Of a stretch of 64,000 bases of DNA, positions 39,301 through 54,300 are shown one piece after another. The position numbers were made by a program. Position 1 is the stretch's first letter, and every line of letters begins with the position of its first letter. The DNA comes from Escherichia coli (lineage in GTDB: Bacteria; Pseudomonadota; Gammaproteobacteria; Enterobacterales; Enterobacteriaceae). Where the stretch lies: NCBI RefSeq assembly GCF_017348835.2, contig NZ_CP071375.1. One strand, given 5' to 3'.

Positions 39301-42300
39301 GCATGGAGGTCACGGTTGAAGCCAGATCAGGCATCTCAGCAATGTCTTCGTTCCTGGTATCAATAGTTGCAGTCATCGATAAACCAATGCGCAAGGGGTG
39401 TTCCATGAGTTCTTTTGGATCCAGAGAAACTTCAACCGGTACACGCTGAACGATTTTGATCCAGTTCCCTGTCGCATTTTGTGCAGGTAATAAGGAGAAC
39501 GCATTGCCGGTTCCCATATTGATCCCTGTCACCCGACCATGAAACACAACATTTTCACCATAAAGATCGCTGATAATATTGACCGATTGACCAATCCGTA
39601 CATCCGTGAGTTGTGTTTCTTTAAAGTTGGCATTAACCCACATTTGACGTGCCGGTACGACAGCCATTAACGATTGTCCGGGGCTCACTGTTTCGCCGAC
39701 CTGAACACTTCTCTGGGCAATATAGCCGGTAACCGGACTCTTAATATCCGTACGTTTAAGCGCCAACCAGGCTTCTTTAGTTGCATCCGCCGCTTCAACG
39801 ACTTGTGGCTGACGGTTTAATGGTGTGTTCATTACTAAAGCTTTATTCGCTTTATAAGCCTGGATAGCGGCATTCAATGCCGCTTTGCTACTTATTAACG
39901 TATCTTTGGTATGCTCCAGCGTTTCTTTTGAAATAACCCCCTGCTTCGCTAACGGCACTCGACGGTTATAATCTTCTAAAGATTGTTGATACTGAATACG
40001 CGCTGAAGCGACTTCGGCACTGTATTGTTTATCCTGTAAGTATAGTTTATTCGTTTGCCGAACAATATTTGCCAGATTATTTTTAGCTTTATTGAGTGCG
40101 ATAGTGGCATCAGTTTTATCCAGTGAAACTAAAATGTCACCTTGTCGAACGTAGTTCGTATCTTTATGATTAACTACAGTGACACTACCTGAGACTTGTG
40201 CAGAAATTGGATCTGCATTCCCCGTGACATAGGCGTCATCTGTACTAATCATGTCTTCTAATTCCATTGACCAATAGGCATAGGCACCTGAAAACGCAAT
40301 AAATAAAACTACCGCCAATAAAGAAAAGTATTTTCTTCTGTTAGAATGTTTTTTATTTGAATTAATCTGTTCCACTTTTATCTCTCATTTCGCATAGATG
40401 AAATTTATGAATTGAATGAAAAGAGTATTCATTCTTCATATCAAACACAGTGCATGTGTTGCACATTATCCCAGGAACGTTGGAGGCCTAATTTAAATGA
40501 GGTGCAAAAAAAACAACAGAGGACTAAACCGTGGCTTTTGCAATACAATTCTTACGCCTGTAGGATTAGTGAGAAGACTTATAGTGCTAATGTGAAACTA
40601 TAAATCATCGGTACAATCCCTGATTTTATTGTTGACATTTCATATATGCCGACTATTTATATGGTATACTTGTCGAATTATCTTAAAGGAAGCTCAAATT
40701 TTCTTATTTTTATTGAGAAAATGAGATGATGCCTTATGTCTGTATTACTACAGGGAGAAGGGAGATGCTTCATTGCAAAGGGAATAATCTATGAACGCAA
40801 TAATTATTGATGACCATCCTCTTGCTATCGCAGCAATTCGTAATTTATTGATCAAAAACGATATTGAAATCTTAGCAGAGTTGACTGAAGGCGGAAGTGC
40901 CGTTCAGCGGGTGGAAACACTTAAGCCTGATATCGTCATCATTGATGTCGATATCCCCGGAGTTAACGGTATCCAGGTGTTAGAAACGCTGAGGAAGCGC
41001 CAATATAGCGGAATTATTATTATCGTCTCCGCTAAAAATGACCATTTTTACGGGAAACATTGTGCTGATGCTGGCGCTAATGGTTTCGTGAGTAAAAAAG
41101 AAGGCATGAACAATATCATTGCGGCTATTGAAGCTGCAAAAAATGGCTACTGCTATTTCCCCTTCTCTCTCAACCGGTTTGTTGGAAGTTTAACGTCCGA
41201 CCAGCAAAAACTCGACTCCTTATCGAAACAAGAAATTAGTGTCATGCGCTATATTCTTGATGGCAAGGATAATAATGACATTGCTGAAAAAATGTTCATC
41301 AGCAACAAAACTGTCAGCACTTATAAAAGTCGCCTGATGGAAAAATTAGAATGTAAATCACTGATGGATCTTTACACATTCGCACAACGTAACAAAATCG
41401 GCTAACCACATGAAGTTTTTACCCTATATTTTTCTTCTCTGTTGTGGTCTTTGGTCGACCATAAGTTTCGCAGACGAAGATTACATCGAATATCGTGGCA
41501 TCAGTAGTAACAACCGTGTCACACTTGATCCACTACGTCTGAGCAACAAGGAATTACGTTGGTTAGCGAGCAAAAAAAATCTTGTGATTGCAGTACACAA
41601 GTCCCAAACGGCTACGTTGTTGCATACCGATTCGCAGCAACGGGTTCGTGGTATTAATGCTGATTATTTAAATCTTTTAAAAAGAGCGTTAAATATCAAA
41701 CTAACACTCCGGGAATACGCCGATCATCAAAAAGCAATGGACGCGCTGGAAGAAGGTGAAGTCGATATAGTGTTATCACATTTAGTTGCTTCGCCGCCTC
41801 TTAATGATGACATTGCTGCAACCAAACCACTGATAATTACCTTTCCGGCGCTCGTCACCACCCTTCACGATTCAATGCGACCGCTTACCTCATCAAAACC
41901 AGTAAATATTGCTCGAGTAGCAAATTATCCCCCTGACGAGGTAATTCATCAATCATTTCCAAAAGCAACAATTATCTCTTTTACAAATTTATATCAGGCA
42001 TTAGCATCCGTCTCAGCCGGACAGAATGATTACTTTATTGGTAGTAACATCATTACCAGCAGTATGATTTCCCGCTATTTCACTCACTCCTTAAATGTAG
42101 TGAAATATTATAACTCACCGCGTCAATATAATTTTTTCTTGACCAGAAAAGAATCTGTCGTTCTTAATGAAGTACTCAATCGATTTGTTGATGCTTTGAC
42201 AAATGAAGTTCGCTATGAAGTATCACAAAATTGGCTTGATACAGGAAACCTGGCCTTTCTGAACAAACCATTAGAACTCACTGAACATGAAAAACAATGG

Positions 42301-51300: not shown

Positions 51301-54300
51301 GCTGCCGCTGCCGTTTTCTGGGTTTGCTGAACTTGCTGAGTTTGCTTTTGTGCCGCTACCGGAGCATTATCAGCAGCCCATACAGTTGAAGATGCCAGAA
51401 TTGCTGTGACCATCGTGGCCATAATTAAACGTTTCATACTTACCTCATTCTTTAACAGTTTTAGAAAACGCCGCCATCATATTGGGTGAGCATGAAATGA
51501 GAAATCAGAGAGCAACGGTCATTTTGAAAGGGTTATCTTACAGTTGTAGTTATTATCGCAAGAAGTATTTTAGTCTTACAATTGTAGGAATATGCTTCCT
51601 GTCACAGAGAACTATTCTTATGTACCACAAAGAGATGTCATTTATTATATCGATGTAAATATTGATTAATTATATGTAAATACAGCCATAACATCGTACA
51701 TTCTCAGTGAACCATTTTCAGGATAACTTTCTATGAAAGTAAACTTAATACTTTTTAGCTTATTTTTATTGGTCTCTATTATGGCATGCAATGTTTTTGC
51801 ATTTTCCATTTCTGGTGGTGGAAGTGAGAGGAGCTATAAAGAGACGGAAAAAACATCAGCGATGACGACAACTCACTCTACAAAAATTCAGCCATCACAG
51901 GCAATTTTGTTTAAGATGAGAGAAGATGCGCCACCATTAAACCTCACAGAAGAAACCACGCCCCCTTTTCCGACAAAGGCGAATTATCTTATTCATCCTG
52001 TGCGATAGCGTCTGTCACCTGGCAGGTGAACAATCATGTCTGATGCTGATGTGAACACCTGCCCAAATGAGCCATCCTGACCCACTATCGCCTGCCATAC
52101 CCCACCATAAAGCGAATCATCAAGCCACAAGCCGGGGCAAGAAACATAAATATCCCCGTCACCAGTTCATTACCGCCAGTTAACCACATGGTGAAGTAAT
52201 AAATGAGTGCAGCGAGGATCACCATGCCGAAGAAAGAAGAGACCGCCGATACCACGTTCAGTACCTGACCGATGTATCCGCTTACGCAGACAATACACAG
52301 GGCGAGAAACATCCATAAATAAATCATAGCTCAACCTCCTGCCGCGCTAAAAAACCTGTAACTTCAGTCACTTTAATAGTAAGACAATCCTTACCCTCTG
52401 GCAATTTTTGCTAAGCATCAATGAAAACAGCATGTTAAATGCAACACTATTGCATGCGGAAAATTTTTTACTTTGCACGATTAATAATCAGTAGCTGAAA
52501 GCAGTCAGCCAGTGATAAAGTAGAGCCACCGCATTCATGCTCCTCGTGGTTATGTCCTGACTAGTCTTTACACTCTTTACAGGAACCATTGTCGTACATG
52601 ATGGCCCAACCAATTGAGTGTACCGCTGTCGACATGGAATCTTCTGCGATACAACAATTCGTATCTACAGAAGGTAACTATGTTTCCACAATGCAAATTT
52701 TCCCGCGAGTTTCTGCATCCTCGCTACTGGCTCACATGGTTTGGGCTTGGTGTACTCTGGCTTTGGGTACAGCTTCCTTATCCTGTTCTCTGCTTTCTCG
52801 GCACGCGTATTGGCGCAATGGCGCGACCATTCCTGAAACGGCGTGAATCTATCGCCCGTAAAAACCTGGAACTTTGCTTCCCGCAGCATTCTGCGGAAGA
52901 ACGCGAGAAGATGATTGCCGAAAACTTTCGTTCACTCGGCATGGCGCTGGTAGAAACCGGCATGGCGTGGTTCTGGCCCGACAGTCGCGTACGTAAATGG
53001 TTTGATGTTGAAGGGCTGGATAACCTTAAACGCGCACAAATGCAAAATCGCGGCGTAATGGTTGTCGGCGTCCATTTTATGTCGCTGGAACTGGGCGGCC
53101 GCGTGATGGGACTTTGTCAGCCAATGATGGCTACCTATCGTCCACATAATAATCAGCTGATGGAATGGGTGCAGACCCGTGGTCGCATGCGCTCTAACAA
53201 AGCGATGATCGGCAGAAATAATCTGCGCGGCATTGTCAGTGCACTGAAGAAAGGTGAAGCGGTATGGTTTGCTCCCGATCAGGATTATGGTCGTAAAGGC
53301 AGCTCCTTCGCGCCGTTCTTTGCGGTAGAAAATGTCGCCACAACCAATGGCACCTATGTTCTCTCCCGTCTCTCTGGCGCAGCCATGTTGACCGTAACGA
53401 TGGTAAGAAAAGCGGATTACAGCGGATATCGTTTGTTCATCACCCCAGAGATGGAAGGCTACCCGACAGATGAAAATCAAGCCGCTGCCTATATGAACAA
53501 GATTATCGAGAAAGAGATCATGCGCGCACCGGAGCAGTACCTCTGGATCCACCGTCGCTTTAAAACGCGCCCGGTGGGAGAATCGTCGTTATACATTTAA
53601 CAAACTGCTCTGACTCTTTACCTCCTCACATAAGCCATAATAACCTCATGGTTTTTATGGCTTTTTTCTTAAGGTTTTTTCCTTCGCTGAATATCTAATT
53701 ATTACCGTCAGAAATTAAACTGTCGCCGATATGAGACACCTGTAAGTTACTAAAAGTAAATAAGAAAATGCCTCTTGTCTCGTTTCAGTTTTAGGCGTAC
53801 ATTAGCGCCGTCTCGAGCAGTTTAGCTCAGAATTCTGGGGTGATGCCCACGGTAAAATACAGGACTTTTAAGGTCGTTTTGCCCGGTGTCAACTCACTGT
53901 ATCAGGTGTAATGAAGTCATTCAGGCGTAACAGCAATTACGCGGAGAGATGTAAAGTGAAATATTTCTTTATGGGCATTTCTTTTATGGTCATCGTTTGG
54001 GCCGGTACTTTTGCCCTGATGATCTAAAAGCAAACTGTGCAATGAAAAACAGGAGCCATCAGGCTCCTGTTTGCATTTCTGAGGTCGGTGTTTATTCCGC
54101 GTTTTCGTGAATATGTTTGCTGCTGGCGGGTAGTAAACCGTCGGCACGGAACATCGCTTTAATCCCACGAATCGCCTGACGAATACGGTCGCGGTTTTCA
54201 ATCAGTGCAAAGCGCACATGCGTATCACCATAGTCGCCAAAGCCGATCCCCGGCGAGACACAAACCTTCGCTTCGTTAAGTAATTTCTTGGCAAACTCCA

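Follow-up and report, generated by a model that had tools for sequence, protein, structure and literature searches.

The window, the whole stretch of 64 kb of Escherichia coli DNA analysed here, carries the gene order emrKY-evgAS-yfdE-yfdV-oxc-frc-yfdX-ypdI (Table 1). Gene identities were taken from the annotation of strain PE164, which is 100% identical, and from that of K-12. The EvgA protein was identical (WP_000991370.1) in every E. coli strain fetched. The whole cluster is AT-rich, with a GC content of 36-45%. A spacer separates yfdX from frc, as the first-pass annotation had noticed from the sequence alone, and its length was 511 bp (50291-50801) rather than the 510 bp given there.

Table 1. 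Positions of the genes, EvgA boxes and candidate regulatory features (mismatches are counted against the EvgA-box consensus; ranks are those of the weight-matrix scan)
Feature	Position	Strand	Sequence and details	Basis
EvgA box, divergent emrK-evgA intergenic region	40549..40566	.	TTCTTACGCCTGTAGGAT, 2 mismatches	PWM rank 2
evgA, regulator	40791-41405	+		PE164 and K-12 annotation; translation checked
evgS, sensor kinase	41410-45003	+		PE164 and K-12 annotation; translation checked
frc-oxc-yfdV-yfdE	45059-50290	-	frc is the first gene	annotation
frc (yfdW), formyl-CoA transferase	49040..50290	-		PE164 and K-12 annotation; translation checked
Most conserved block of the yfdX-frc spacer	50427..50560	-	box, candidate core promoter, start of presumed 5' leader	alignment
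Candidate EvgA-dependent frc core promoter	50482..50514	-		read by eye
EvgA box upstream of frc	50541..50558	-	TTCTTACAACTGTAAGAA, frc-sense TTCTTACAGTTGTAAGAA, 0 mismatches (18/18)	PWM rank 1
Terminator-like stem-loop	50711..50747	-	55 nt past the yfdX stop, upstream of the frc box	folding
yfdX	50802..51437	-		PE164 and K-12 annotation; translation checked
Candidate yfdX core promoter	51476..51503	-	TTCTCA-16-TATGAT, downstream of the proximal box	promoter scan
yfdX proximal EvgA box, weaker	51535..51552	-	ATCTTACAGTTGTAGTTA, yfdX-sense TAACTACAACTGTAAGAT, 3 mismatches	PWM rank 4
yfdX distal EvgA box	51573..51590	-	GTCTTACAATTGTAGGAA, yfdX-sense TTCCTACAATTGTAAGAC, 1 mismatch	PWM rank 3

EvgA boxes in the window and their conservation

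The window was scanned with the EvgA-box consensus TTCYTACANNTGTARGAA, allowing up to 3 mismatches, and the only matches were the four boxes of Table 1. The expected number in shuffled windows was 0.60, and four matches were reached in 0 of 100 shuffles. All four EvgA-box-like sites noticed in the first-pass annotation were present in the sequence, the yfdX proximal one starting at 51535, one base off the 51534 given before. A weight-matrix scan had been proposed as a check. We trained the matrix solely on three sites outside the window, those upstream of K-12 safA, ydeP and yegR, which are independent EvgA targets with the same motif. This matrix placed the four boxes 1 to 4 across the 64 kb, in agreement with the earlier reading. 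The score of the frc box (22.4) was reached by 0 of 100 Markov-simulated windows and that of the emrK-evgA box (19.3) by 1. The two yfdX boxes were not significant singly (17/100 for rank 3 and 56/100 for rank 4), and the proximal one is by itself within chance expectation. Even so, the fourth-best score in the window (10.67) about equalled the highest fourth-best score in 100 simulated windows (10.70). K-12 MG1655 has the same four boxes, identical in sequence to those of the window.

The frc box consists of two perfect 8-bp arms (arm TTCTTACA; an example of an arm mutation would be TTGTTAGA) around a central AC. This dinucleotide is not self-complementary, and the reverse complement of the box differs at both central bases. 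The site had been called a perfect palindrome; this holds for the 8+8 arms and the 18/18 consensus match, but not for the 18 bp as a strict palindrome. The box is located 251-268 bp upstream of the frc ATG, and its distance to the start codon is similarly long as at ydeP (250 bp for frc and 243 bp for ydeP). Upstream of yfdX, the distal box lies 38 bp upstream of the proximal one. In some strains a third box is present at this place, added by a duplication of 38 bp.

Seven Escherichia sequences were aligned, six from E. coli and one from the divergent Escherichia L006. In the arms of the four boxes 3/64 columns were variable, versus 229/1144 (20%) in the surrounding intergenic DNA (Fisher p = 0.001), and in the central dinucleotides 4/8 were variable (arms versus centre p = 0.002). 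This pattern points to purifying selection on the arms, with the central spacer free to vary. The arms of the frc box and of the yfdX distal box were invariant in 7/7 sequences; variation in the former was confined to the central dinucleotide, and one central base varied in the latter. For the proximal box, one arm column and both central positions varied among the seven sequences. The emrK-evgA box was identical in the six E. coli sequences, and in L006 its two off-consensus arm positions were shifted to the consensus, leaving 0 mismatches. On a larger scale, a 40-mer containing the frc box was matched by 5,407 E. coli records, of which 4,176 were identical. Four variant 40-mer sequences (from three sampled records and APEC E19035) carried changes solely in the upstream flank, outside the box. 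No other part of the spacer is as variable as this flank (50559-50600): about 1,060 genomes have 3 substitutions within 11 bp there, and L006 has many more.

These results also bear on whether the frc box is a palindrome that arose by chance, without a role in regulation. The one point for a chance origin is the general one that short palindromes do arise by chance. Against it, a full consensus match (14 fixed and 2 two-fold positions) is expected by arithmetic about 0.004 times per 4.6-Mb genome, and window shuffles gave 0.01 matches (≤3 mismatches) to the exact sequence of the box. Furthermore, the arms are invariant while centre and flanks vary, and the box adjoins evgAS and is upstream of an EvgA-induced gene. 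A chance origin is effectively refuted by these observations. Judged by their sequence, the four inverted repeats are real EvgA binding-site motifs.

Conserved block and hairpin in the yfdX-frc spacer

The most conserved block of the spacer takes in the frc box and the DNA immediately on its frc side. It is near-invariant even in L006, in contrast to the heavy substitution of the 40 columns that precede the box. Within the block, a candidate core promoter can be read in two overlapping ways, CTGATT(50514-50509)-16-TATCAT(50492-50487) and TTACCA(50510-50505)-17-TATTCT(50487-50482), each scoring 8/12. The promoter scan, with a threshold of 9/12, called neither of them; a score under this threshold is what would be expected of an activator-dependent promoter. 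Variable columns of the alignment fall inside the presumed spacer of the candidate promoter. Transcription is predicted to start near 50480-50475, corresponding to about 2,493,440-2,493,445 in K-12, which would give a leader of about 185-190 nt and put the box centre at about -70 to -75.

At yfdX, the stretch between the proximal box and the ATG was almost invariant among the seven sequences. When the frc and yfdX upstream regions were anchored on the frc box and the yfdX proximal box, the 10-mer CTCTCTGATT was found at +23 to +32 after both boxes. A local alignment of the two upstream regions returned similarity from box to box only and did not pick up this 10-mer. An RpoD-holoenzyme SELEX peak has been reported inside the frc-yfdX spacer (PMC3946193). 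The promoter suggested in that paper, TTTATA-18-AATAAT (50677-50648), is upstream of the frc box, a placement that would be at odds with simple activation from the box.

Coding potential was considered as a cause of the spacer conservation and rejected, the open reading frames in the spacer being mechanical only. A 65-aa frame over the box (50425-50622, minus strand) would be broken by a 1-nt gap in L006, and a 15-aa frame within the conserved block is not preceded by a Shine-Dalgarno sequence. The presumed frc leader (195 nt) folded only modestly better than its shuffles (z = -2.3). An Rfam scan of 40300-52100 (E ≤ 1) gave two chance-level matches, both within coding genes; neither the spacers nor the presumed frc leader matched a known RNA element.

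The symmetry of the frc box raises the question whether it activates, instead or in addition, plus-strand transcription antisense into yfdX. The symmetric emrK-evgA motif offers a precedent, being a single box between divergent genes. At the frc box, however, the promoter scan found no promoter-like plus-strand site just downstream, and the 50559-50600 flank on that side is the most variable of the spacer and contains neither a gene nor an Rfam RNA. We consider such an antisense role very improbable.

Between yfdX and the frc box lies a hairpin with a 15-pair stem (-25.4 kcal/mol, z = -6.2, equalled by 0/200 shuffles). It is a stable, G+C-containing stem-loop, as is characteristic of an intrinsic terminator, and in strain GPEC1209 a compensatory change at 50740/50718 replaces an A-U pair with a G-C pair. 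The last four stem pairs are A-U, and the tail TTATTTGG has 5 T in 8, interrupted. Because of this interrupted U-tract, substantial read-through from yfdX is possible.

It is conceivable that the box binds EvgA and yet most transcription of frc-oxc-yfdV-yfdE comes from the yfdX promoter by read-through, the genes forming a single yfdXWUVE operon. In that case the internal box would only modulate expression, for example by countering H-NS silencing or as an auxiliary site. Several papers describe such a single operon. The imperfect U-tract, the flagging of H-NS in the spacer by SELEX tables (PMC3946193) and the AT-richness of the cluster are also compatible with it. However, the hairpin is very stable and is kept by a compensatory change, and the spacer is best conserved immediately downstream of the box, where its layout is like that of the yfdX promoter. 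In addition, EvgA overproduction is reported to have given very different response factors for yfdX and for the downstream genes (PMC4759549), and PMC3720670 explicitly separates yfdX from yfdWUVE. Transcription mainly by read-through is therefore improbable in our view, though less so than the antisense role.

Probable EvgA-dependent transcription of frc and relation to known systems

The binding of the repeats by EvgA and the induction of yfdX and yfdWUVE come from the literature, at second hand. The legend of Fig. 2 in Mullins 2013 marks EvgA-bound inverted repeats for yfdX and yfdWUVE and credits them to Masuda and Church 2003 (PMC3720670), and a 2021 review names the frc promoter region among those bound by EvgA (PMC8147483). 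Upregulation of frc, oxc, yfdX and emrK on EvgA activation has been reported (PMC4283999, PMC10746267, PMC4759549); frc and oxc rank with the most strongly induced genes of evgS-constitutive mutants (PMC4283999) and are induced in acid-stress data (PMC10746267). A text search of the literature for the frc promoter and the motif strings returned unrelated papers only.

Taken together, the frc box very probably gives frc-oxc-yfdV-yfdE their own EvgA-dependent promoter, and the best overall explanation of our results is that this operator drives a separate frc-oxc-yfdV-yfdE transcript through EvgA (probability about 0.85). The same had been suggested in the first-pass annotation, and it is supported by the box, the conserved block, the hairpin, the outgroups described below, the RpoD SELEX peak and the literature. 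That reading was right but not new, since PMC3720670 and PMC8147483 state the same: the EvgA box upstream of frc and its wiring were published about twenty years ago. With the link already in the literature, its confirmation in one further E. coli strain adds nothing new.

In the mechanism we propose, 50541-50558 would be a high-affinity operator for EvgA in its phosphorylated form; this response regulator is of the NarL/FixJ type, and its gene lies 9 kb from the site within the window. From this operator a dimer of EvgA would activate a weak minus-strand sigma-70 promoter located about 50-60 bp downstream. Transcription from this promoter would yield frc-oxc-yfdV-yfdE mRNA whose leader is roughly 190 nt long. 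The yfdX transcript would be separate, with its own pair of boxes upstream and the stable hairpin at its end, and the emrK-evgA box would serve the divergent emrKY and evgAS promoters. Such wiring would tie the proton-consuming oxalate/formyl-CoA cycle directly to EvgS/EvgA acid sensing, with neither the YdeO-GadE cascade nor yfdX as an intermediate. A direct link from EvgA to frc would also help to account for the induction of frc and oxc by active EvgS, which is among the strongest of any genes.

Outgroups were obtained by a Frc-based genome scan, which gave at least one divergent Escherichia and two close outgroups among the matches listed. In the two outgroups, Moellerella and Providencia, frc-oxc-yfdV was present without yfdX, without an EvgA box and without evgAS within 10 kb. 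EvgA boxes thus co-occur with evgAS: both are found in E. coli and L006 and neither in the Moellerella and Providencia frc clusters. Because the clusters of these two nearest non-Escherichia relatives among the matches listed have neither evgAS nor yfdX beside them and lack the box, the EvgA wiring of the frc cluster appears to be specific to the Escherichia lineage.

Compared with the known EvgA regulon, whose box TTCYTACA-NN-TGTARGAA lies at emrKY/evgAS, ydeP, safA-ydeO, yegR, yfdX and frc, the window has the same motif, location and sites. There is no difference in kind, and the strain is another E. coli carrying known sites. The frc-oxc clusters of Oxalobacter, Lactobacillus, Providencia and Moellerella likewise combine the enzymes Frc and Oxc with a YfdV-type transporter; those of Providencia and Moellerella differ in that evgAS and yfdX are not next to them and an EvgA box is missing.

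Among characterised systems, BvgAS of Bordetella is the closest relative of EvgAS. In BvgA-dependent promoters the primary site is an inverted repeat that lies well upstream of the core promoter, and low-affinity secondary sites have been described at fha. The primary site of EvgA is like that of BvgA, with similar half-sites (TTTCCTA for BvgA and TTCYTAC for EvgA). A tentative and rather doubtful extension of this likeness is that EvgA promoters share a fixed architecture that reaches past the 18-bp box. Counted from the box, the bases at +9/+10 (CA), +26/+27 (TC) and +31 (T) are identical in six promoters, those of frc, yfdX, emrK, safA, ydeP and yegR. A further likeness to an EvgA half-site is seen at +25 to +32, placed exactly four helical turns beyond the first one, and the -10-like hexamers share one register, +53/54 to +58/59 after the box. 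These conserved positions between the box and the -35 element are compatible with BvgA-like secondary sites, which in EvgA are hinted at by the five conserved columns alone, unlike those described for BvgA. If the extended architecture is true, EvgA would, like BvgA, occupy a high-affinity primary site near -75 and from there spread over secondary sites of low affinity as far as the -35 region, and the 38-bp duplication upstream of yfdX would naturally tune EvgA occupancy. The two systems differ in their regulons and signals, EvgA serving the acid response and BvgA virulence.

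EvgA boxes and their conservation

Gene identities were obtained by carrying the annotation of strain PE164 and K-12 MG1655 to window coordinates, and the translations were checked. Over window positions 49800-52000, identity is 100% to E. coli strain PE164 and 95-99% to over 5,400 complete genomes of the species. The emrKY-evgAS-yfd cluster (38000-52000) is AT-rich (36-45% GC versus about 50% in the flanks), which fits an acquired island as well as the H-NS binding marked in SELEX tables. The 9-codon leader ORF evgL, which overlaps the evgA start and is annotated in K-12, is also found in the window. 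In the clinical strain 1218KP, evgS is interrupted by IS1 copies; from the equivalent of window 50350, IS1 copies have put foreign DNA in place of yfdX and the entire frc upstream region, including the box.

The whole 64 kb was searched with a published-style EvgA consensus, TTCYTACANNTGTARGAA, allowing up to 3 mismatches. Exactly four matches were found, and these are the four sites named in the first-pass annotation; three of its starts were correct, and the fourth (51534) was one base off. Shuffled windows were expected to hold 0.60 matches, and none of 100 shuffles held four. A weight-matrix scan was also run with a non-circular matrix trained on the K-12 safA, ydeP and yegR upstream sites, all of which lie outside the window, and the four boxes took ranks 1 to 4. 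The top two scores far exceed those of simulated windows. Neither yfdX box is significant singly by this comparison, and four scores of such height are jointly essentially absent from simulated windows. The 50541 site, described earlier as a perfect palindrome, does have two perfect 8-bp arms and an 18/18 consensus match as an EvgA inverted repeat, but its central AC is not self-complementary. K-12 carries the identical sequence at all four sites.

Three intergenic regions were aligned from the window, K-12, O157:H7, three other diverse E. coli and L006, a divergent Escherichia (labelled E. coli SCPM-O-B-8794) whose EvgS is 91% identical. Only 3/64 arm columns of the four boxes vary, two of them towards the consensus, versus 229/1,144 of the remaining ungapped intergenic columns (Fisher p = 0.001) and 4/8 central columns (p = 0.002). 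This is the pattern expected if a dimeric helix-turn-helix protein touches the arms and not the centre. The shuffle counts and these statistics rule out that the 50541 repeat arose by chance. The emrK-evgA box of L006 matches the consensus perfectly (TTCCTACAGGTGTAAGAA), unlike that of every E. coli sequence examined, which has two off-consensus arm bases.

A 40-mer with the frc box at its middle matched 5,407 records (4,176 identical, 171 with one mismatch and 1,060 with three). One record per variant class, one partial-match record and APEC E19035 were inspected; all differences fell in the upstream flank and none inside the box. The box might instead serve an antisense promoter on the plus strand. 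This is unlikely, because the plus-strand flank is the least conserved and the promoter scan gave no promoter-like match there.

Among the matches listed in a species-wide Frc scan, one divergent Escherichia was followed by Moellerella and Providencia (86% identity). The latter two carry frc-oxc-yfdV and a second frc-like gene, with no evgAS, yfdX or EvgA box within 10 kb, so the EvgA wiring appears to be a feature of the Escherichia lineage.

Coordinates of the features (window positions unless a locus is named)
Feature	Position	Strand	Basis or remark
emrK	39212-40375	-	PE164 / K-12 annotation
evgA	40791-41405	+	PE164 / K-12 annotation
evgS	41410-45003	+	PE164 / K-12 annotation
yfdE	45059-46204	-	PE164 / K-12 annotation
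yfdV	46278-47222	-	PE164 / K-12 annotation
oxc	47292-48986	-	PE164 / K-12 annotation
frc	49040-50290	-	PE164 / K-12 annotation
yfdX	50802-51437	-	PE164 / K-12 annotation
ypdI	51733-52008	+	PE164 / K-12 annotation
evgL	about 40765-40794	+	K-12: L005 3730-3759
emrK-evgA box	40549		2 mismatches to TTCYTACANNTGTARGAA
emrK-evgA box, L006	19729-19746		perfect match
frc box	50541		0 mismatches to TTCYTACANNTGTARGAA
Proximal yfdX box	51535		3 mismatches to TTCYTACANNTGTARGAA
Distal yfdX box	51573		1 mismatch to TTCYTACANNTGTARGAA
Stem-loop	50747-50711	-	after yfdX
Palindrome ACGCTTTAAAAAGCGT	50589-50605	-	
ORF MQKGIGSSDEMIFST	50411-50458	-	15 codons
10-mer CTCTCTGATT	50509-50518 and 51503-51512	-	box-anchored frc/yfdX comparison
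Aligned stretches, window	50465-50540, 51459-51534, 40473-40548	-	
Aligned stretches, K-12	L002 5997-6071 and 8656-8730; L003 8339-8413		
38-bp duplication	L087 12256-12323 (H3); L094 489-578		corresponds to window 51535-51590; TRF period 38, 2.4 copies

The yfdX-frc spacer and a candidate frc promoter

On the minus strand, the end of yfdX (50802) is followed by a stem-loop, a variable stretch, the frc box and a conserved block. The stem-loop has a 15-pair stem (-25.4 kcal/mol, z = -6.2), is kept in strain GPEC1209 by a compensatory A-U to G-C change at 50740/50718, and looks like a putative terminator with an interrupted U-tract. The roughly 40 bases preceding the box are the most variable portion of the spacer; a small palindrome, ACGCTTTAAAAAGCGT, lies between the hairpin and the box, and in L006 one of its pairs is changed from G-C to A-T on both sides, another is G-T and the inner ones no longer pair.

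The stretch running from the box (50558-50541) down to about 50427 shows almost no variation, L006 included. Two weak sigma-70 candidates that overlap each other, CTGATT-16-TATCAT and TTACCA-17-TATTCT, lie in this block; both score 8/12, under the promoter-scan threshold. Sub-threshold core promoter scores are usual among activator-dependent promoters. The predicted frc start would lie near 50475-50480, which would put the centre of the box at about -70 to -75 and give a leader of about 190 nt. The similarly long box-to-ATG gap of ydeP (243 bp versus 250 bp for frc) supports this candidate layout. The presumed leader contains, in its best-conserved block, a 15-codon ORF, MQKGIGSSDEMIFST, whose first ten codons are invariant across seven sequences and whose C-terminus differs in L006. 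The ORF lacks a Shine-Dalgarno sequence, and its conservation appears to lie at the level of the nucleotides, not of coding.

Arm conservation, the promoter-like block and the compensated hairpin thus support the proposal that frc-oxc-yfdV-yfdE has its own EvgA-driven promoter. Expression mainly by read-through from yfdX is improbable. In its favour stand the imperfect U-tract and the continued use of "yfdXWUVE operon" in many papers; that read-through is the only route is disfavoured by the conserved promoter-like block, together with the stability of the hairpin and its compensatory change. A separate EvgA-driven promoter is already the published view, and the 50541 site is a previously described component of the EvgA regulon. 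Mullins et al. (2013, PMC3720670), citing Masuda and Church 2003, indicate EvgA-bound inverted repeats for yfdX and for yfdWUVE. In a genomic SELEX study, the frc-yfdX spacer showed H-NS and a peak of RpoD holoenzyme, and the promoter hexamers proposed there, at 50677-50648, lie upstream of the frc box (PMC3946193). frc and oxc are among the most induced genes of evgS-constitutive mutants, and EvgA sites were found only at genes previously known as EvgA-regulated (Johnson et al. 2014, PMC4283999). yfdX, frc, yfdV and oxc were strongly up-regulated in a 2023 ribosome-profiling and RNA-seq study of acid stress (PMC10746267).

Bases shared downstream of the box

An exact copy of the 10-mer CTCTCTGATT stands at +23 to +32 after each of two boxes, that of frc and the proximal one of yfdX; this equal offset suggests that the two promoters are alike in design or origin, and it too supports the candidate frc layout. 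Some E. coli strains (H3, NZ_OX442407) have a third EvgA box upstream of yfdX, the hybrid TAACTACAATTGTAAGAC, which arises from a 38-bp tandem duplication between the two yfdX boxes.

When six EvgA-activated promoters (frc, yfdX, emrK, safA, ydeP and yegR) were anchored on their boxes, identical bases were observed at +9/+10 (CA), +26/+27 (TC) and +31 (T). These five invariant columns compare with 0.19 expected under a circular-shift null (P < 2e-4 for six sequences; P about 0.05 once the likely paralogous pairs frc/yfdX and safA/ydeP are merged). The -10-like hexamers likewise keep a common register, +53/54 to +58/59. At +25 to +32 the sequence looks like another EvgA half-site, placed 42 bp past the first. 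These features hint, speculatively, at secondary EvgA sites like those of BvgA promoters.
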